Of a stretch of DNA of 64,000 nt, positions 5,270-64,000 are shown piece after piece (within the stretch, counting starts at the first letter, position 1; every line of letters starts with the position of its first letter). The DNA comes from an uncultured bacterium. Its GTDB lineage: Bacteria; Patescibacteriota; Minisyncoccia; Phycocordibacterales; GWA1-40-21. The stretch spans positions 6,793-70,792 of the forward strand of contig CAIKXY010000013.1 in NCBI GenBank assembly GCA_903831595.1, in the 5' to 3' direction. Position numbers and translations under genes: made by a program. Under the pieces are notes generated by a model. That model was not told the origin of the DNA. It worked only from the letters and a program-made list of their open reading frames with translations, and did not search any database.

Positions 5270-7297
5270 TTATACTCCAATTACGACGGGTATCACCATT
5301 GGTTTTTTTGCAGTTTCTTGGAACAAGTATCTGCTAACATTATCATTTATTGCATCTTTCAACATGTCAAAATTGATTGGTTTACCAATAGCACCTTCCT
5401 CAATTGTTTTTTTAACAATAAGTCTTGTATGTTTTAATAAATCCTGTGATTCTTTTAAGTAAACAAAGCCTCTGGAAATAATATCTGGAGATTTTTTTAA
5501 TTTACCAAGATTTACATCAATACTTGCAATGATTACAAACATTCCATCCTGTGCAAGCATTTGCCTGTCACGGATAACAACCTCTTGAACATCTCCAACT
5601 GAGAATCCGTCCACCATGACTATTCCTGACGGTGCTTTTTCTTTTAACATTTTTATTTTTGCACCATTATCTACTATTTCAACTACGCTTCCGTTATCTG
5701 GTACAACAATATTTTCTTTTGGAGTACCAATATTCATTGAAAGTTCAGCATGCATTTTAAGCATGTAGTGGTGGCCGTGGTATGGCATAAAGAATTTGTA
5801 AGGGATTTGTCTGTGAATCCATTCAAGCTCGGATCTTTTTCCGTGGCCACCAGCGTGAACATCTGTGTCGGTGTAGGTAATTATTTTTGAATCATGTCTA
5901 TAAAGATTATCTTTTAGGTCTGCAACTGCACGTTCATTTCCGGGAATAATCGATGAAGATAAGATTATTGTATCTGTCTTGTTTAGTTTAATTTCTTTGT
6001 GTGTGTTATTAGACATTCTCATCAACCCTGCAAATTCTTCACCCTGAGCACCAGTTGAAAGTATCATGAGTTTGTGAGGAGGGTAGTCATGCATATCCTT
6101 AACATCAATAATATGTTTTGTATCAGCAAGTTTTAAGAACTTAATAATTTCAACATTATTTTTCATACTCCTTCCCTCGATGACTAATTTTTTCCCATAT
6201 TTTTCTGACATTCTTATGAAGTGTAAAATCCTTTCTACCTGAGATGAGAAAGTGGCAATGATTATTCTGCCCGTAACATTTTTTACTATATTATCAATTG
6301 TTGAAATAACTAGGTCCTCTGATATACCCCAACCAGGTTTTTCTATTCCAGTTGAATCCATCATAAGTAGTAAAACTTTTCTGTCTCTAAACATTTTATA
6401 TTGTTCAAACTCTTTTTCTTTTGGAATTCCGTTTGTATTATCAACCCTTACATCTCCAGTGCAGACAATATCTCCTTGTGGGGTTGCGATAATAACACCA
6501 GTTGAATCTGGTATTGCGTGAGTAATACCAAAGAATTTAATTTTTAAATTAGTGCCTATCGGTAAAAAATCAGTATTTTTATCTATCATCTTAATGTTCA
6601 ATTCTGGTAGGTGAGGGAATTCAGATTGTCGTTTTTTTATGAGTAGTGCACCGAATTCTCTTGTGTATATTGGACAATTGCCCAAAGATTCCATAACGAA
6701 AGGAATTGCGCCAATATGGTCCAAGTGTCCGTGGGTGATTATTAATCCACGAATCTTGCCTTTTCTTTGCTCAAGGTATTTTGTATTTGGCAAAATATAG
6801 TCAATCCCAGGGGTTTCTTCAGTCTTAAACTGAATCCCTGCATCTACAACCACAATGTCATCCCCGTATTCAATTGCAGTCATATTTTTCCCTATCCCCT
6901 CTACTCCACCAAGTGGAATTATTCTAATGTTTCCATCAATAAGTGAAGGAATAATTTGTTCTTTTTTTGTTGCAATATCTGATGTTACTTTTCTAACCCC
7001 GTGTTTTTTTTGCTGACCTCTGTGAGTCTGGCTTTGATTATGTGTATTTTGTGGTTCTCCTTTTCTGACAAAAATCAATTTCTTTTTTGGTTGATCATTT
7101 AGAAGCGTTTCTGGTTTATTTAAATTTTCAGCTACAAAAGATTTGGTATTTGTATTTACCACATGTGTATTAGCTGAAAAAGAGCCACTGTTTGTATGGT
7201 GAATTGTATTAGCACGATTCTGTCCAAAAGAAGAATTTCTTTTTGGCATGAATCTTCTTCCACCGTGATTATTTTGATGTTGTTGATTATATATCAT
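5270..7297 (-). CDS. rnj: Ribonuclease J (metallo-beta-lactamase / beta-CASP) with a long low-complexity N-terminal extension
   Basis: Motif HGHLDHIGA (HxHxDH), beta-CASP region and C-terminal domain are present. The first 110 aa or so are Q/N/H/T-rich low complexity. Confidence 0.85.
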   Translation of the reverse strand: MIYNQQHQNNHGGRRFMPKRNSSFGQNRANTIHHTNSGSFSANTHVVNTNTKSFVAENLNKPETLLNDQPKKKLIFVRKGEPQNTHNQSQTHRGQQKKHGVRKVTSDIATKKEQIIPSLIDGNIRIIPLGGVEGIGKNMTAIEYGDDIVVVDAGIQFKTEETPGIDYILPNTKYLEQRKGKIRGLIITHGHLDHIGAIPFVMESLGNCPIYTREFGALLIKKRQSEFPHLPELNIKMIDKNTDFLPIGTNLKIKFFGITHAIPDSTGVIIATPQGDIVCTGDVRVDNTNGIPKEKEFEQYKMFRDRKVLLLMMDSTGIEKPGWGISEDLVISTIDNIVKNVTGRIIIATFSSQVERILHFIRMSEKYGKKLVIEGRSMKNNVEIIKFLKLADTKHIIDVKDMHDYPPHKLMILSTGAQGEEFAGLMRMSNNTHKEIKLNKTDTIILSSSIIPGNERAVADLKDNLYRHDSKIITYTDTDVHAGGHGKRSELEWIHRQIPYKFFMPYHGHHYMLKMHAELSMNIGTPKENIVVPDNGSVVEIVDNGAKIKMLKEKAPSGIVMVDGFSVGDVQEVVIRDRQMLAQDGMFVIIASIDVNLGKLKKSPDIISRGFVYLKESQDLLKHTRLIVKKTIEEGAIGKPINFDMLKDAINDNVSRYLFQETAKKPMVIPVVIGV

Positions 7298-10287: not shown

Positions 10288-11172
10288 ATGAATAACATTC
10301 AAAACAAAAGCATAACTATAGAAGATATAAATCAGCTCAAAATACAATCGGTTATTGTTCTAATGAAGGAACACACCAAAAAACATTTTATTTTTTATAT
10401 TGTTTTACCTGTATTAAGCATTGTTTTATTTTTTTTATTATTAAGTTTTTTTTTCCAATTGAAAGATTTGCTTTTTGGAAGTAACTTCATCATATTATTT
10501 TTACCTTTTCTTCCTTCGCTAATACTATATTCCTTTTTGTATTATAAAAAAAACAGGGAATTTTTTACTTCATTTGCTAAACAATTAGGTTTTTCATTTT
10601 CTCAAAACGGAGATATGTCATCGGTTGAAGGAATGCTTTTTAAGGCCGGAAGAGCACAGACAATTTGTAATGTGATAGCTGGTACATATTATAATCATTT
10701 AACTAGATTTTATAATTTTCAGACAACTATTGGATATGGAAAAAGCCAACACTCTGAGTCATTCATGGTTTTAGAGGTTACATTCGATACATTATTACCA
10801 GAAATAATTTTGAATAGAAAATTTTGGATTTTTTCTGATATGACAATACAAAGAGATAATGAAAGAAAAATCTCACTTGAGGGCGATTTTGATAAATATT
10901 TTAATTTATACACCGTTGAAGGATATGAAAATGAAGTTTTACAAATTTTTACTCCAGAAATTATGAAAATATTTATGTATGACACAAAAGAACTTAATGT
11001 CGAAATGTTTAAAAATAGAATGTACATATATTCCAGGTCATTTTCGGCAGATATGAAAGGTCTCATTAAATTTTATGATTTTGGAAAGGATGTCATTATT
11101 AATCTTGACCAAAGATTAAAAAATTTAAAAGGTGATGTAAGTGCAATGGAAAAATATATTAAACTTACTTAA
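10288..11172 (+). CDS. Membrane protein of unknown function (two N-terminal TMs; LemA-associated, DUF3137-like context)
   Basis: 294 aa, hydrophobic N-terminus, sits between lemA and htpX. Family assignment is an inference from gene context only. Confidence 0.4.
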   Translation: MNNIQNKSITIEDINQLKIQSVIVLMKEHTKKHFIFYIVLPVLSIVLFFLLLSFFFQLKDLLFGSNFIILFLPFLPSLILYSFLYYKKNREFFTSFAKQLGFSFSQNGDMSSVEGMLFKAGRAQTICNVIAGTYYNHLTRFYNFQTTIGYGKSQHSESFMVLEVTFDTLLPEIILNRKFWIFSDMTIQRDNERKISLEGDFDKYFNLYTVEGYENEVLQIFTPEIMKIFMYDTKELNVEMFKNRMYIYSRSFSADMKGLIKFYDFGKDVIINLDQRLKNLKGDVSAMEKYIKLT

Positions 11173-18409: not shown

Positions 18410-18635
18410 TTAGCCTCCTTTGGCTACGTTGTAGTCAAAAAACATAAATCTAAAAACATAATACATCAATTTTTGTTAGAAGTCAATTAAGAGAAGGATT
18501 CTAGCATGGGTATTTAATTGTTTTTTACTTTGTATTAACTAGTAAAAAATTATCAAAGGTCTTTAAGTCCTCACGCAAACAAAAGCCTCTTATTGTTTCC
18601 TGACACATCAAAAAATCAGCTTTCGCTGATTTATT

Positions 18636-18662
18636 TGTGCACGGGAGAGGAGTCTTGACCAT
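18636..18662 (-). pseudogene. tRNA-Leu(UAG) 3'-end fragment (degenerate direct duplicate)
   Basis: tgtgcacgggagaggagtcttgacc duplicates the plus-strand image of the tRNA-Leu 3' end at 18813-18835. It has its own downstream hairpin at 18611-18636. Confidence 0.6.
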
Positions 18663-18812
18663 TACATGGTCAGTATAGTCTTCGTATTTTTTCGGATTAT
18701 TAAATCCTCAAAAATATGCTCAGACTTTTCAAGCCCTCTCACGCAAGCAAAGTAGTTTGCTTGCTCCTTAGCAAATGAAAAACCTCAGCAGAAAGCCGAG
18801 GTTTTTCATTTG

Positions 18813-18893
18813 TGCACGGGAGAGGACTTGAACCTCCATGCCTTGCGGCACTAGCTCCTAAGGCTAGCGTGTCTGCCATTTCACCACCCGTGC
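18813..18893 (-). tRNA. tRNA-Leu (anticodon UAG), class II
   Basis: Reverse-strand read gcacgggtggtgaaatggcagacacgctagcCTTAGGAgctag...ggttcaagtcctctcccgtgca. Acceptor and T-arm are canonical. Confidence 0.8.
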
Positions 18894-18898
18894 ATATG

Positions 18899-18971
18899 TG
18901 CGCCCAGTTGGAGTCGAACCAACGACCTTATCCTTAAGAGGGATTTGCTCTACCAGCTGAGCTATGGGCGC
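18899..18971 (-). tRNA. tRNA-Lys (anticodon CUU)
   Basis: Acceptor gcgccca/tgggcgc, D-stem gctc/gagc, anticodon loop ctCTTaa, T-arm gttgg-ttcgact-ccaac. One A.A mismatch at the top of the anticodon stem. Confidence 0.7.
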
Positions 18972-19294
18972 AAGACCCACATGCGCAACTATAAAAATAA
19001 CAGAAAAATACGGAAAAATCAATTAAAATTAGGGAATCGGTTATATTTTCTACTTGAGTCCCATCCCGAACTCTAACAGCATATTTCTTTTGGTCCCATT
19101 CAAAACAATAAACAGACGGGGAGGGACCGCTTCGCTTATCTCTCCTTACAGGAACTGTACACCTTTCGTATCGTACTCACGACGTTCCGTGCGATAGACT
19201 CAAGGTTTTTCGATTCCCGCACACAAGCAAGTAATCTTGCTTGTTCCCGAGCACAAAATTAAAATACACATTTGAAATGTGTATTTTAATTTTG

Positions 19295-19378
19295 TGCTCG
19301 GGGCGGGAATCGAACCCGCATGGTGTTGCCACCGAGAGATTTTAAGTCTCTAGCGTCTACCAATTTCGCCACCCGAGC
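19295..19378 (-). tRNA. tRNA-Leu (anticodon UAA), class II
   Basis: gctcgggtggcgaaattggtagacgctagagaCTTAAAAtctct...gggttcgattcccgccccgagca. Confidence 0.8.
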
Positions 19379-21937: not shown

Positions 21938-22633
21938 ATGGTATTCTGGCATTTAATATTAATATATATGATTGATGCACCTACAAAAAATAATGAAATG
22001 AAGGGGCCTTTTTTTGTTAAATCGTTAGAAAAGGATTTTGCTACAAAAACACTAAAAGGAAGAAAAAAAATATCGTTTCAAACTATTCATAATATTATAA
22101 AAACTGGTACGATAAAACCAAATACTAAAAGTTTTGGTTATAAAATGAGACTTGCATGTTCGTTACTTTTTGATGAATACACAAAAACTTATCGCGCTCA
22201 AGGTATTATTTTTAAAACAAAAAATAAACCAGATTATATTGCCCCATTCGATATAGTTTTACTAACAGAAACAGACGACATCATTGTTCAATACTATAGA
22301 ATAGAAGACAATCTTCATCTGTATTATAATCACAAATTAATTCCTGGTTACAAAAAGTTTATATTTAATAATATTGATATGATGACTAAGAAAATTCCTA
22401 ATCCAAAAATTGCTTGGGAAGAAGTAAATAAATTTAGAATGTCGGCTGGACATAAAAAACTTTCTAAACAAAAATATAGATTAGTCCAATATGTTGAAGC
22501 TATTTTTCATAAAACAATAGACATAGAACCGGTTGCCGTATTTGGATACACAAAAAAAGCAAGAATAGTAGCAAAGGAAAACGGATTATCTTGTTTCTCT
22601 TCAGCAAAAAAGTTTTATCAAAAATTTCGTTAA
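21938..22633 (+). CDS. Hypothetical protein (231 aa)
   Basis: ORF with no recognisable motif. The start may be the internal M at residue 11. Confidence 0.35.
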   Translation: MVFWHLILIYMIDAPTKNNEMKGPFFVKSLEKDFATKTLKGRKKISFQTIHNIIKTGTIKPNTKSFGYKMRLACSLLFDEYTKTYRAQGIIFKTKNKPDYIAPFDIVLLTETDDIIVQYYRIEDNLHLYYNHKLIPGYKKFIFNNIDMMTKKIPNPKIAWEEVNKFRMSAGHKKLSKQKYRLVQYVEAIFHKTIDIEPVAVFGYTKKARIVAKENGLSCFSSAKKFYQKFR

Positions 22634-28013: not shown

Positions 28014-28051
28014 CAAAAATAAAACGCTTTAATAGCGTTTTTATTTTTGTG
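28013..28051. repeat. 39-nt near-perfect palindrome immediately 3' of tRNA-Tyr (cacaaaaataaaacgct ttaat agcgtttttatttttgtg)
   Basis: Read directly from the sequence. Equivalent long palindromes follow tRNA-Leu(UAA) at 19252-19296 and tRNA-Phe at 32584-32623. Another lies between tRNA-Glu and a tRNA-Glu-like 5' fragment (39606-39634), and a self-complementary stretch occurs at 63941-63956. Confidence 0.7.
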
Positions 28052-28372
28052 CGTCCGGAGTAAGTGCTAGGATGCACTTACGTGAGGGACTCGAAGCCTG
28101 TTTGAGCAGATTTTGTGAGTGAAGCGAAACAAAATCTCCAAACAGGGTACTGACCCTGTAAGGGTCGAATGTCCCTCCTCGTGTTCGTATTTCAAATTTG
28201 GCGTGGGGACCTGAATTTTATGACTTGACCGAGTCCCTCCCGGCATTTCGTTGCGCTCAAAATTTTGTTGGACCCCAAATTTTATGACTCTCATCTCTTG
28301 ATTAATCAAATTTGTCATGCTTTACTTGCATTAGAAGTTAAGTCTAAAAATTCTGATGGACGGAGGTCCAAT

Positions 28373-28786
28373 ATGCACATAAAAGCGCCGATTGTTTCTA
28401 AACCTGTAGGAGCAAGTGAAATACCTGAAGGAGGCTTTGGATGGAATCTTGATCATCGCGGAACTGACGGTCCAATTCTGTGTGAATTTTGTGGAACGAA
28501 TCACCCAGAGCGATTAGATCAGTCATACACACTGGGCACAGTTCTTGGTTTGCAAGTGGTTGAGGAGTGTTGCGGAAAAGTAATAGATATTTTGTACAAA
28601 GAGCTAGCGGAAGATTTTACACAAGCTTATCTTGAAGAATTTGCTAGAAACCCGACCAATCCTCGCTTTTTCTTTTTTCTAGACAAATTGTCAAAGGTAC
28701 TTGAAGTAGCCGCGAAAAAAGTAAATGAAACATCCGCTGCTATTTCTAGCAGCAAAGAGTCACTCTCAAAGATAAAAAATGTTTAA
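28373..28786 (+). CDS. Hypothetical protein (GC-richer than its surroundings)
   Basis: Track ORF 28265-28786. The likely start is MHIKAPIV, preceded by a ggaggt RBS. Composition differs from the flanking genes. Confidence 0.4.
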   Translation: MHIKAPIVSKPVGASEIPEGGFGWNLDHRGTDGPILCEFCGTNHPERLDQSYTLGTVLGLQVVEECCGKVIDILYKELAEDFTQAYLEEFARNPTNPRFFFFLDKLSKVLEVAAKKVNETSAAISSSKESLSKIKNV

Positions 28787-28962: not shown

Positions 28963-29463
28963 ATGAATAAAAGCTTGTCGGCAAGAGAAGTAATTAAGAA
29001 AGCGTGTCATTCTTTAAGTTCAGAGTTAAAAGGATGTAAATTCGATATACACGCGATTTCAGAAGTTTCTACATGCTGGGAAGGAAAGGGATACATGAAA
29101 TATCACGAGGCCTACATTTTACGTGGGGCCAAAGGATATTGGGGGGTATGTTTGGGTGAACACGACAAAAGCGTGTTCACAAAGCAATACGACTGTGATT
29201 TAACAGTTATAAGAATTCTCGGCCCAGAAAAGAAATTCATTGTTAGTGCAATTGAACAGGCGAAATGGTTTTCTAAGTCTCTGATGCACGCGACGCGGGA
29301 TAATGTGTTTCACTTTAATTTAGATAATTATCCCAAGCACATAAAAATACTAGAAACAAAAATGAGGGAAAATTTAATCAGACTTGACGTAGGAGGTGTC
29401 CGATATAAAGAAAGTTTCCCAAATGAATTACATGGTGTCATGAGAAAATTGGTGACATCATAA
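28963..29463 (+). CDS. Hypothetical protein (GC-richer than its surroundings)
   Basis: 166 aa with a ggggga RBS upstream. No recognisable motif. Confidence 0.4.
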   Translation: MNKSLSAREVIKKACHSLSSELKGCKFDIHAISEVSTCWEGKGYMKYHEAYILRGAKGYWGVCLGEHDKSVFTKQYDCDLTVIRILGPEKKFIVSAIEQAKWFSKSLMHATRDNVFHFNLDNYPKHIKILETKMRENLIRLDVGGVRYKESFPNELHGVMRKLVTS

Positions 29464-32403: not shown

Positions 32404-32623
32404 ACAAAAAACCGCGAAAGCGGTTTTTTAATGTGCCAAGGGCCGGAATCTCTCCCTCACCTCTCATTTCGTCGACACTCAATTCGGGCTAGGCACCAGC
32501 TCATTCATTTTTTCTGCTGAAAAAATATCATTCCGCTGTTCTCGTCCGGACAGAAGCAAAGCAGTTTGCTTCTTCCCTTAGCCCAAATTTAAAAACACCA
32601 GATACTGGTGTTTTTTAAATTTG

Positions 32624-32697
32624 TGCCAAGGGCCGGACTCGAACCGGCGACCACATCCTCTTCAGGGACATGCTCTACCAACTGAGCTACCTTGGCT
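32624..32697 (-). tRNA. tRNA-Phe (anticodon GAA)
   Basis: gccaaggtagctcagttggtagagcatgtccCTGAAGAggatg...gccggttcgagtccggcccttggca. Confidence 0.8.
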
Positions 32698-32748
32698 TTA
32701 CAATGAGATATTACACTATTTGATAGAAAAATTCTAGGGTCAAAAAAC

Positions 32749-33015
32749 TTATTTTATTATATTTGTAATGGAAGTAGGAATTTTATTTGTTACCGATTTA
32801 ACACTATTTATGCTACCCTGTAAGCTTTGATATGCTTTAAGTGCTGTGTTCAAATATGGCTGGACAAAATTATATGCAATCACAGCAACAACAATAATTA
32901 TTATCCAATAAATCACCCTAATAATTGAAGACCAGCGATTTGCCCGTCTCATTCCTTTGAGCATGTGGTTATTTTCTTTTACCAAATCATAAATTTCTTT
33001 TTCGTTTGGGTTCAT
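32749..33015 (-). CDS. Small membrane protein (88 aa), hypothetical
   Basis: A single central TM helix. Confidence 0.35.
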   Translation of the reverse strand: MNPNEKEIYDLVKENNHMLKGMRRANRWSSIIRVIYWIIIIVVAVIAYNFVQPYLNTALKAYQSLQGSINSVKSVTNKIPTSITNIIK

Positions 33016-33258
33016 AAGTATATTATACTATACGGTTGGTATTTATCAATTATTTGTGGTGCGTCCCTGGCCAGACCATGAGTACATTTATTTCCTTCGA
33101 CTAAAACTTTGCCGTCACTCAGCTTTGTCTAGGCACCTGCTCATTTGTTCCACAAGCTTGTGGAACATCATTCCGCCGTTCGATTCTGGCTCACAAGCAA
33201 AGAAGTTTGCTTGTTCAGCGACACATAATAAAACTGCTAGAAAAGCATTATTATTATG

Positions 33259-33330
33259 TGTCCCTGGCCAGAATCGAACTGACATCTATCCCTTAGGACG
33301 GGATTGTTCTATCCATTGAACTACAAGGAC
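33259..33330 (-). tRNA. tRNA-Arg (anticodon CCU)
   Basis: gtccttgtagttcaatggatagaacaatcccgTCCTAAgggat...gtcagttcgattctggccagggaca. Confidence 0.7.
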
Positions 33331-39382: not shown

Positions 39383-39426
39383 AATTATATTCTATCAGAA
39401 TTTAATTATAATAGAAAATACTTTTG

Positions 39427-39498
39427 TGACCTTACGGGGAATCGAACCCCGATTCCAGCCTTGAAAAGGCCGTGTCCTAACCGTTAGACGATAAGGCC
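39427..39498 (-). tRNA. tRNA-Glu (anticodon UUC)
   Basis: ggccttatcgtctaacggttaggacacggccTTTTCAAggctg gaat cggggttcgattccccgtaaggtca. Confidence 0.7.
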
Positions 39499-39600
39499 AA
39501 AACATAATTCATAAACTATACCGAACCCCGAATTTCCCTTCTTACAGAAGCTGTACACCTGTTCTGTTTTTTATTTCGCTATAACTCATAAAAAACTATC

Positions 39601-39680
39601 ACAGGTCTTGTGTTTGGGTCCCATATCCCAAACACAACCTTTCAAAGGCCTATGTCTAACTATCAGACGATAAGGCCGAT
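39601..39680 (-). pseudogene. tRNA-Glu-like 5' fragment (acceptor 5' strand, D-arm, degenerate anticodon arm; no T-arm or acceptor 3' strand)
   Basis: ggccttatcgtctgatagttagacataggcctttgaaaggttg is near-identical to the 5' half of tRNA-Glu. It then runs into the palindrome ttgtgtttggg...cccaaacacaa instead of a T-arm. Confidence 0.55.
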
Positions 39681-39742
39681 TAAATACACTATGCAATATA
39701 GCATTTTTTGAGAAAAAGGCAAAAAATGCTATTGTTATTTAA

Positions 39743-39762
39743 TGGAAGAGTGGCTGAGTGGG
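39743..39762 (+). repeat. Direct copy of the 5' end of tRNA-Ser(CGA) (tggaagagtggctgagtgg), about 120 nt upstream of the gene
   Basis: Matches 39866-39885 exactly. The interval between holds the hairpin ggaagccacgtttcgcgaaagcggcttcc. Confidence 0.7.
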
Positions 39763-39866
39763 AAAAAGTTAAACTACTTTAATTTTTTCCACGAGCGAAG
39801 CGAGGGCGGCAACCAGGAAGCCACGTTTCGCGAAAGCGGCTTCCATTTGAACGAAGTGAAATATAT

Positions 39867-39954
39867 GGAAGAGTGGCTGAGTGGTTGAAGGCGCCGCATT
39901 CGAAACGCGGTAGGGGCGAAAGTCTCTCGTGGGTTCAAATCCCACCTCTTCCGC
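39867..39954 (+). tRNA. tRNA-Ser (anticodon CGA), class II
   Basis: ggaagagtggctgagtggttgaaggcgccgcaTTCGAAAcgcgg taggggcgaaagtctctc gtgggttcaaatcccacctcttccg. One A.C mismatch closes the anticodon stem. Confidence 0.7.
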
Positions 39955-39996
39955 ATTAAAATGGTATTTCTTTTTTCCTAGTAGTATAATATTGGT

Positions 39997-40384: not shown

Positions 40385-40432
40385 AAAAAACAATTACGCC
40401 GTTTTCGCTTTGCGAAAACGGCGTAATTGTTT
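40385..40432 (+). terminator. Intrinsic terminator (caattacgccgttttcgctttgcgaaaacggcgtaattg + T-run)
   Basis: Long perfect hairpin followed by ttttat. Confidence 0.7.
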
Positions 40433-40480
40433 TATAGATATTTTTGTGATAATATCTTTTTTGTTAGTGTGTGTTATTGG

Positions 40481-40553
40481 GGGCGGTTAGCTCAGTTGGT
40501 AGAGCATTTCTTTGACGTAGAAAGGGTCAGAGGTTCGAATCCTCTACCGCCCA
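40481..40553 (+). tRNA. tRNA-Val (anticodon GAC)
   Basis: gggcggttagctcagttggtagagcatttctTTGACGTagaaa gggtc agaggttcgaatcctctaccgccca. Confidence 0.8.
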
Positions 40554-40839
40554 CAAAAATTCCCGAATAGGGAATTTTTGGGACGGTAAGAAAGCTCTGG
40601 GAGAGCTTTCGTGGGGATTCGAAAACCTTTGATAGTTTTTTGCAAGCTAACGCGAAGTAAAAAACAGAAAAGGTGTACAGAAACTGTAAGTTTCGAAATT
40701 CCTCTACATCACAAACAAAAAACTAGTGACCGAGTACTGCACCGTCCACAAAATAAAAAACCGCCATTTGGCGGTTTTTTATTTTTTCAAAAATTTAAAA
40801 ATATATTTTTAGACTTTAATAGTATCACCAATAACTATG

Positions 40840-63781: not shown

Positions 63782-64000
63782 TATTAAAAACCGCCGAGGG
63801 GGCGGTTTTTTAGTGCGGGAGATGGGGATCGGTCACAAGTATTTTTCTGCTGAAAAATCTTGCGACCATTACATGGTCAGTACACCATTTTGGATATTTT
63901 ATTTTGCTGCACTCATAAAATATCTCAAAAGGTCTTTCGGTTGGGTCCCAACCCAATCCTCAACCCGACTCAGCTCGTCAGCTTCCGTCTTCCGATTCCT

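Follow-up and report, generated by a model that had tools for sequence, protein, structure and literature searches.

Structured, protein-less modules beside tRNA genes of Patescibacteria carry a hairpin-split inverted copy of the tRNA 3' end

The 64,000-nucleotide (nt) stretch of Patescibacteria DNA analyzed here (GenBank assembly GCA_903831595.1, contig CAIKXY010000013.1, forward strand, positions 6,793 to 70,792; hereafter the window) carries at least seven small, structured modules on the 3' side of tRNA genes, namely those for tRNA-Leu(UAG), Leu(UAA), Tyr, Phe, Arg and Val together with a module at 63786 that runs past the window end, and at least eight small, non-coding copies when a related insertion in a pseudo-tRNA-Glu is counted. 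We read these modules, with moderate confidence, as mostly decaying copies of miniature, protein-less, non-autonomous insertion elements that target the segment of a tRNA gene from the T-loop to just past the discriminator. An original prediction, made from the sequence of the window, had offered a small tRNA-targeting non-autonomous element, a processing or antisense RNA module and a recombination-scar system as possible identities, and the first of these is the best supported, by the shared cores and hairpins, the differing occupancy of orthologous tRNAs, the tandem and mixed stacks, the decay of the copies and the lack of a nearby recombinase. The window holds 12 tRNA genes (called with ARAGORN and Rfam) and an RNase P RNA amid ordinary housekeeping genes, is 99.9% identical to a contig of the metagenome-assembled genome (MAG) GCA_903954215.1, and has its nearest species among Patescibacteria of the Paceibacteria/Nomurabacteria type. 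Comparisons were made with 80 related Paceibacteria genomes (one or other of the fetched loci is cited by an L-number where needed), comprising 229 tRNA loci that were not selected by motif.

On the strand antisense to the tRNA, a module consists of a hairpin or terminator (T2, where present), a direct copy of the tRNA 3' end, displaced and in the orientation of the tRNA gene (D'), a core, an inverted copy of the T-loop and the T-stem 3' strand (arm A), a hairpin (h), an inverted copy of the acceptor 3' strand and discriminator (arm B), a palindrome (T1) and the intact tRNA. Read in the direction of the tRNA, the real tRNA end (R) is followed by T1, by the inverted copy (I, arms A and B, which give the final 20 nt in reverse complement and are separated by h), by a core of 50-110 nt, by the displaced direct copy (D) and then by the next terminator or flank. 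Hairpin h is about 25 nt long and takes the place of nt 65 of the inverted copy; it had been described as inserted exactly between T-stem and acceptor strand, and it does lie at that junction, but it replaces nt 65 and does not sit cleanly between nt 65 and 66. The further claim that one and the same hairpin is used in each case holds for Leu(UAG), Leu(UAA), Arg and, as a variant, Phe, whereas the Tyr and Val hairpins differ in sequence and occupy the same position. Absent from the earlier account was the conserved structured core, which comes in two families: alpha, with a 5-bp covarying stem closed by a TTACA loop, (A/T)GTACACC, an AT-rich covarying stem and then CTCAAAGG, and beta, with GTCRCTCAG...TCTAGGCACCWGCTCAYT, a hairpin and then ATCRYTCCGCYG. 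In the window-end module and related loci alpha is followed by beta as a single longer core. The six window modules at Leu(UAG), Leu(UAA), Phe, Arg, Tyr and Val can be aligned, the two alpha stems (HP1 and HP2) are conserved in an alignment of the six window alpha cores, and family-wide the HP1 stem covaries under a conserved YTRCR loop; a model of the core found further alpha copies in L004, L005, L007, L008, L018, L021, L024, L043 and L051. Across 47 well-defined units, all without an open reading frame (ORF), the length, with T1 and a direct duplication of 15-22 nt included, is 125-344 nt (median 174), and identity between R and D sets in at nt 54-61, in the T-loop, and in most extends to 1-5 nt past the discriminator.

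The two leucine loci, at which all sequence features listed in the original prediction are present, illustrate this layout. Downstream of the intact target tRNA-Leu(UAG) (18813-18893, minus strand) lie, in plus-strand order, T2 (18610-18635), an inverted repeat beyond the displaced copy that is terminator-like on the minus strand at 18632-18613; D' (18630-18662, plus, antisense), a degenerating direct copy of the tRNA 3' end whose repeat extends over 22 nt (18630-18651 versus 18805-18826, 95% identity); HP1 of the alpha core (ttgacca-TTACA-tggtca, 18655-18672, plus), recognized by sequence and family-wide covariation; HP2 (18685-18716, plus), the AT-rich covarying stem recognized as an inverted repeat and in the alignment of six window cores; arm A (18728-18739, plus), which reads TTCAAGCCCTCT against TTCAAGTCCTCT in the tRNA, with one mismatch; h (CAAGCAAAG-TAG-TTTGCTTG, 18744-18763, plus), at the T-stem/acceptor junction of the inverted copy; a degenerate arm B (the CTCCTTAGCA region, 18765-18773, plus); and the palindromic, terminator-like T1 (18772-18812, arms 18772-18789 and 18795-18812). 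At tRNA-Leu(UAA) (intact target, 19295-19378, minus) the plus strand carries a degenerate displaced copy of the tRNA 3' end (19115-19135), an alpha core (tcc-TTACA-gga, CTGTACACC, HP2 and CTCAAGG, 19143-19208), arm A (TTCGATTCCCGC, 19209-19220), a perfect inverted copy matching 19303-19314 at 12 of 12 positions, h (CAAGCAAG-TAAT-CTTGCTTG, 19224-19243) and arm B (CCCGAGCA, 19246-19253). Arm B is the first block of a perfect palindrome that also takes in T1 and the real acceptor end; it had been given as 45 nt (19252-19296) and is indeed perfect, but extends over 57 nt (19246-19302; 28+1+28 nt, 100% complementary). The loop of h contains TAG at Leu(UAG) and TAA at Leu(UAA), and the idea that it holds the anticodon was discarded on the loops at Arg (GAAG) and Phe (GCAG) and on the family consensus, GCAG. 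An origin of the Val hairpin in a D arm was likewise ruled out, the remaining hairpins being unlike D arms.

The modules are real and far from chance expectation, and the same design that had been claimed for the Phe, Arg, Tyr and Val loci was found at all four. The motif CAAGCAA-N(2-8)-TTGCTTG occurs three times against 0.01 expected. In a strict test for a split inverted copy (both arms of the tRNA's own 3' end, inverted downstream, with at most one mismatch each), 11 of the 229 tRNA loci scored, with an arm spacing of 25 nt in eight and of 23, 27 and 47 nt once each; a contiguous inverted copy (arm spacing 0) was found in none of these 11, and controls in which tRNAs were paired with the flanks of other tRNA types (five shuffles) gave 0. 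The same design is present at about 10-14% of the 229 loci. Self-copies of at least 10 nt within 350 nt accompany 75 of 242 tRNAs (80 related loci plus the window), and all fetched DNA together holds 94 modules among 435 tRNAs. A metagenome scan with the pattern T-loop + N12-14 + GCAAAGCAGTTTGC returned at least 120 stretches; among the matches listed, 83 of 126 have an antisense tRNA within 140 nt, with about 30 anticodons represented. For the 85 listed metagenome modules with an adjacent tRNA, arm A matches that tRNA with at most one mismatch in 55 and arm B does so in 39, the interruption being 25 nt in 28 of these 39. The window Val module, two tandem Ser modules of L004, a Ser module of L007 and the Glu insertion have a common core and hairpin and tRNA-specific arms. 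It is this sharing of a non-tRNA core and of hairpins across different tRNAs that makes the modules a family, as had been proposed.

Occupancy of orthologous tRNAs, a comparison proposed in the original prediction, differs between relatives. The tRNA-Gly locus is empty and without terminator in the window, whereas L003, whose valyl-tRNA synthetase (ValRS) is 95% identical, carries there a 143-nt insert composed of T1, B, h, A and core plus a 16-nt duplication (ATTCTCGCCACTCGCA); conversely, tRNA-Arg has a module in the window and is empty in L003. Across species the filled loci number 6/48 for Phe, 3/47 for Arg, 7/24 for Ser, 7/31 for Val and 1/22 for Gly. Tandem modules occur in L004, L043, L101, L133, L155, L156, L169 and L174, some stacks mixing core families, and at tRNA-Phe beta cores are present in the window, L003 and L004 and a different core in L005 and L024. 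The hairpin directly 3' of the tRNA averages -16.8 kcal/mol where a module is present versus -10.4 kcal/mol where it is not (p = 6e-5), which agrees with T1 being part of the insert. From these comparisons, a small unit has been inserted at the segment from T-loop to 3' end, duplicating part of the tRNA end, leaving the tRNA intact, bringing in T1 and leaving the site reusable. Recent copying from Phe to Arg within this genome was considered and dropped, the core identities of 59-71% being too low to show it.

What befalls the copies after insertion was followed by comparing R, I and D site by site in 67 distinct modules, excluding nt 65, which is systematically replaced at the hairpin junction. 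I equals R and D differs at 128 sites, D equals R and I differs at 101, and I equals D and R differs at 5, from which it follows that I and D begin as faithful copies of the tRNA end and afterwards decay each on its own. The tRNA-derived arms are not maintained by the host, and there is no compensatory pairing between I and D. The hairpins behave otherwise: in gapless alignments (a MAFFT alignment misplaced four sequences) 307 of 315 cells of the h stems are Watson-Crick pairs versus 213.5±4.5 with shuffled partners, and 105 of 125 cells of the HP1 stems versus 48±4, values reached in 0 of 1000 shuffles each, while the 440 stem cells of h and HP1 together contain a single G-T pair. This pattern suggests structure acting on DNA, or to copying as perfect complements, rather than to RNA under long-term selection. 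A young module (L036, in which I, D and R are identical) is predicted to fold as single-stranded DNA into a three-way junction (z = -13) in which A pairs with A' as a stem and h and B-T1-B' form the two arms, with an alternative predicted pairing with D into a cloverleaf-like shape (z = -10).

That second fold brings in the possibility that the modules are functional structured RNAs, either a tRNA-like trailer co-transcribed with the tRNA, in which D and the complement of arm B form an acceptor-like stem, h stands in for the D and anticodon arms and T2 terminates the transcript, or an antisense or guide RNA pairing with the tRNA 3' end. We consider this improbable. It is consistent with the predicted cloverleaf-like fold of the young module in the tRNA direction, with its acceptor-like stem (z = -10), with covarying hairpins, with T2 sites that are terminator-like in the tRNA direction and with arms whose sequence complements the final 20 nt of the tRNA; it is at odds with the independent decay of I and D (agreement against R at only 5-7 sites), with one G-T pair in 440 stem cells, which is atypical for RNA stems, and with an occupancy that is patchy and unlike between close relatives. 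No promoter-like site in module direction was found in the two regions scanned, no Rfam family matches the modules at the gathering threshold over the whole window, and at E <= 5 over 18300-41000 Rfam returns tRNAs and hairpin noise only, whereby known RNA families are ruled out. The processing or antisense RNA module of the original prediction fares badly on the same points, namely the missing promoter-like site in these two regions, the scarce G-T pairs, the unselected arms and the patchy occupancy. An opposite-strand tRNA-like gene with a compensatory acceptor change, an idea prompted by GGACGGT/ACCGTCC versus GGGCGGT/ACCGCCC at Val, was also ruled out: there is no family-wide excess of sites at which I and D agree against R and no T-stem 5' strand before arm A, and ARAGORN and Rfam called no tRNA on the strand opposite to the tRNA at the modules.

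A further alternative does without a mobile element. Downstream of a highly transcribed tRNA gene, the palindrome of the terminator could give rise locally to inverted copies through template switching or fold-back synthesis (quasi-palindrome extension), and slippage to direct ones; the region from the arms over T1 to the tRNA end is indeed a single long palindrome, which at Leu(UAA) is perfect over 57 nt, the stems are nearly all Watson-Crick, and I, D and R are apparently identical at birth, as local templating predicts. Left unexplained are the non-tRNA core and the h common to different tRNAs, genomes and metagenomes, the constant 25-nt interruption at nt 65 where a contiguous inverted copy is never seen, and the absence of T1 from the empty site. 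As the full explanation we hold template switching to be decidedly improbable, and it could contribute to keeping or rewriting the arms. Much the same applies to the recombination-scar system proposed earlier: old copies are decaying scars, but scars leave the conserved core and hairpins unexplained.

For the favored reading, miniature insertion elements, a mechanism can be outlined by which a small circular intermediate of the order core-I-T1-P (P standing for a tRNA-end copy) would recombine with the tRNA gene in the T-loop under the action of a recombinase encoded elsewhere. Since I and P flank T1, a single strand can fold into a replica of the target, and one strand of the element would thus form a three-way junction whose stem is a duplex target replica, from which h would project as an extrahelical arm and of which T1 would form the tip. 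If single strands were exchanged at the foot of this stem and the product replicated, the observed order D'-core-I-T1-R' would result, after which I and D would have no further role and would decay. CTX-phi attP(+) and integron attC sites work by the same folded-strand logic.

A number of points weigh against this reading. Neither an excised form nor an enzyme nor an autonomous relative was found, so that mobility is deduced from comparative patterns only. The folded-strand step is drawn by analogy; a double-stranded circle would give the same order but would leave I unexplained. The scarcity of G-T pairs fits DNA, and equally fits stems copied as perfect complements. Core identity between modules at different tRNAs is only 59-79%, and retargeting may therefore be ancient, and tandem copies could have arisen by unequal crossing-over instead of re-insertion. 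Under a conservative recombinase, one backbone with arms for about 30 tRNAs would need many tRNA-specific lineages or re-templating; possibilities are many old tRNA-specific lineages, which 59-79% core identity allows, and re-templating through palindrome correction. Finally, no direct repeats more than 350 nt away were found in the 80 loci, two scans of viral contigs gave one chance match each, inside coding sequence (the metagenome pattern on 2.9 million viral contigs yielding one, in coding sequence), and blastn against phage and plasmid collections gave no match.

These last searches bear at the same time on larger elements. The ORFs beside 15 metagenome modules are ordinary-looking genes (N-termini only, not domain-scanned), which together with the lack of distant direct repeats in the 80 loci rules out large islands, and the viral-contig scans with the blastn of phage and plasmid collections rule out a viral attP origin. 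The modules could still be what remains of large tRNA-integrated prophages or islands, later deleted down to their attL- and attR-proximal arms, and integrases classically leave direct repeats from T-loop to 3' end, one junction keeping an intact tRNA. We rate this the least probable of the alternatives: all 47 well-defined units measure 125-344 nt, the 80 loci show no distant repeats, integrase genes were found neither there nor in the window, nothing similar appears in viral contigs or in phage and plasmid collections, and independent deletions would not repeatedly leave one ordered set of hairpins. Among the roughly 50 window ORFs no recombinase, transposase, reverse-transcriptase, HUH or Cas1 domain was found, in line with the earlier remark that no integrase is nearby. 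The accompanying statement that the modules do not look like a classic attL/attR pair needs qualifying, for the direct repeats are such as tRNA-integrating elements leave, and the modules are unusual only in size (median 174 nt) and in lacking an integrase.

Set against known systems, the modules have the footprint of tRNA-integrating elements. Williams reportedly described, in 2002, a T-loop sublocation class among the islands and prophages that integrate into tRNA genes with tyrosine integrases. Like these, the modules insert in the 3' part of a tRNA that the element restores, permit repeated or tandem insertion, and are flanked by direct repeats from T-loop to 3' end with the intact tRNA at one junction; unlike them, they measure 125-344 nt, contain neither integrase nor any other gene, hold an internal inverted, hairpin-split target copy and their own palindromic terminator, and occur at about 30 different tRNAs. 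With CTX-phi attP(+) and other Xer-exploiting elements and with integron attC they have in common inverted half-sites predicted to fold into a target replica with extrahelical features, stem pairing conserved above sequence and, if the analogy holds, a crossover at the base of the stem, a target regenerated such that tandems accumulate and an enzyme encoded elsewhere. They differ in targeting a tRNA gene, where the known sites recombine through XerCD or IntI on single-stranded DNA at dif or attI, and in that the extrahelical part is a 9-bp hairpin, not single bases.

MITEs (miniature inverted-repeat transposable elements) and cis-mobilizable elements (CIMEs) are likewise small, non-coding, multi-copy, structured, decaying and dependent on trans-acting enzymes. 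MITEs differ from the modules in a duplication of 2-10 nt versus 15-22 nt of tRNA, and the modules have no element-specific terminal inverted repeats, their only long inverted repeats being the tRNA-derived arms, and are strictly tRNA-linked; we know of no cognate transposase for them. Casposons insert through Cas1 at tRNA 3' ends with duplications of 14-15 bp, and thus have the target and the unusually long target duplication in common with the modules, which are about 100-fold smaller, lack ORFs and clear terminal inverted repeats and have no Cas1 or family B polymerase domain near them in the window. In IS110 bridge RNAs and the tigRNAs of TIGR systems, too, two short target-matching segments surround a conserved structured element, and parasitic bacteria are involved. 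TIGR spacers are 9 nt long and pair with opposite strands (PMC12045711), unlike the module arms, which are collinear on one strand and match 20 contiguous target bases, with no adjacent recombinase or Nop-domain gene and no arrays. Both TIGR arrays and bridge RNAs were ruled out on these grounds, the arms being collinear and an adjacent gene missing. What is known, then, is the tRNA 3' duplication footprint; so far as we searched, and full-text literature searches that included the hairpin sequence gave no description of the modules, there is no earlier account of a protein-less unit of 125-344 nt with an inverted target copy split by a hairpin and a structured core, or of its occurrence at nearly all tRNAs.

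A bolder version, which we think rather unlikely, makes the modules the non-coding half of a new DNA insertion system in which integration is programmable by target and guided by structure: a hairpin-split 20-nt replica, in the form of folded single-stranded DNA or of a guide RNA, would be read at its three-way junction by a trans-encoded Patescibacteria enzyme that inserts the element and rebuilds the tRNA. If the replica could be rewritten to suit whichever tRNA is targeted, the occurrence of a single backbone at about 30 anticodons would be accounted for, and such integration would be distinct from fixed-att integrases, bridge RNAs and CRISPR-associated transposons.

The remaining window modules follow the layout given above. 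The tRNA-Tyr module (28014-28245, minus) consists of T1 (28014-28049), B (28050-28059), h (28060-28081), A (28084-28095) and an alpha core, with two displaced copies (28162-28180 and 28227-28245). The tRNA-Phe module (32404-32623, plus) comprises T2 (32404-32428), D' (32433-32451), a beta core, a degenerate A (about 32538-32551), h (32552-32573), B (32574-32584) and T1 (32585-32622), and the tRNA-Arg(CCU) module (33058-33258, plus) D' (33058-33080), a beta core, A (33179-33190), h (33194-33213), B (33216-33223) and T1 (33224-33258). In the tRNA-Val module (40554-40780, minus), T1 (40554-40579), B (40580-40589), h (40590-40610) and A (40612-40623) are joined to an alpha core with HP1 at 40680-40694, displaced copies at 40690-40710 and 40728-40748 and T2 at 40755-40780. 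The module cut by the window end (63786-64000, plus) shows T2, a displaced copy (63812-63832), an alpha core and the start of a beta part; it directly follows a ribosomal protein L33-like gene with its terminator, and its tRNA must lie beyond the window. In the pseudo-tRNA-Glu (39499-39680, plus), upstream of the intact tRNA-Glu, an alpha core and hairpin sit in the variable loop; its 5' part (nt 1-43) lies at 39635-39680, it is truncated in the T-loop and lies 22 nt upstream of the intact gene, and the 5' part and the Glu-Ser intergenic region match the promoter region of the real tRNA-Glu/Ser of L003. A module-like unit in L005 (5650-6030), with alpha and beta core and an inverted repeat around a terminator, adjoins an apparent tRNA 3' part that ARAGORN did not call and that may be a pseudo-tRNA or an unusual target. 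An ORF at 28265-28786 adjoins the far end of the tRNA-Tyr module and has no Pfam match even at 1e-3; about ten window ORFs of 110-325 amino acids are without Pfam match at E <= 1e-5/1e-6, including 28963-29463, 21938-22633 and 10288-11172.

The module-free window tRNAs (12121, 18899, 19418, 32005, 39427 and 39867) all have either a second tRNA or a protein gene of the same direction immediately after them, and no terminator hairpin; modules bring a terminator and may survive only where termination is harmless. A second kind of partial duplication was also observed, in which tRNA 5' ends (nt 1-12 to 1-24) are copied directly at a distance of 40-160 nt upstream of the gene. In the window (39744-39866) tRNA-Ser(CGA) has such a pseudo 5' end at 39744-39761, and cases elsewhere are L019 Gly, L021 Val, L044 Gly and L051 Glu/Phe, with tandem copies spaced 63 nt apart in L019. 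Comparison of the window with its close relatives L003 and L004 shows in-place inversions of tRNA genes along with their promoters and modules, the units concerned being the Phe-to-Arg block, the Glu/Ser pair and Val (window 32406-33323, 39425-39955 and 40406-40555, respectively), and the strand on which a tRNA lies relative to ValRS varies widely across the 80 loci (same strand in 14/46 for Arg, 20/30 for Val and 21/36 for Glu). The acceptor stem of tRNA-Arg(CCU) differs between window (33259-33330, GTCCTTG/CAGGGAC) and L003 (8728-8800, GTCGCCA/TGGCGGC) at 5 of 7 pairs, with D and anticodon arms about 96% identical in genomes about 85% identical in DNA, which suggests replacement of the tRNA end, not point mutation.

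The genomes of Patescibacteria are among the smallest and most streamlined, yet more than half of the tRNA loci in this window carry a parasite-like non-coding insert, of a design that recurs in many species and at nearly all tRNA types. In MAGs, tRNAs are open to mis-annotation because of the displaced and inverted fragments. A target replica split by a hairpin suggests that a 20-nt site is recognized through structure, and with this a possible new tool for site-specific insertion. If mobile, the modules would be the smallest known elements to home to tRNA genes while repairing them; they would supply terminators, and possibly drive the frequent local inversions and the turnover of tRNA ends between relatives.

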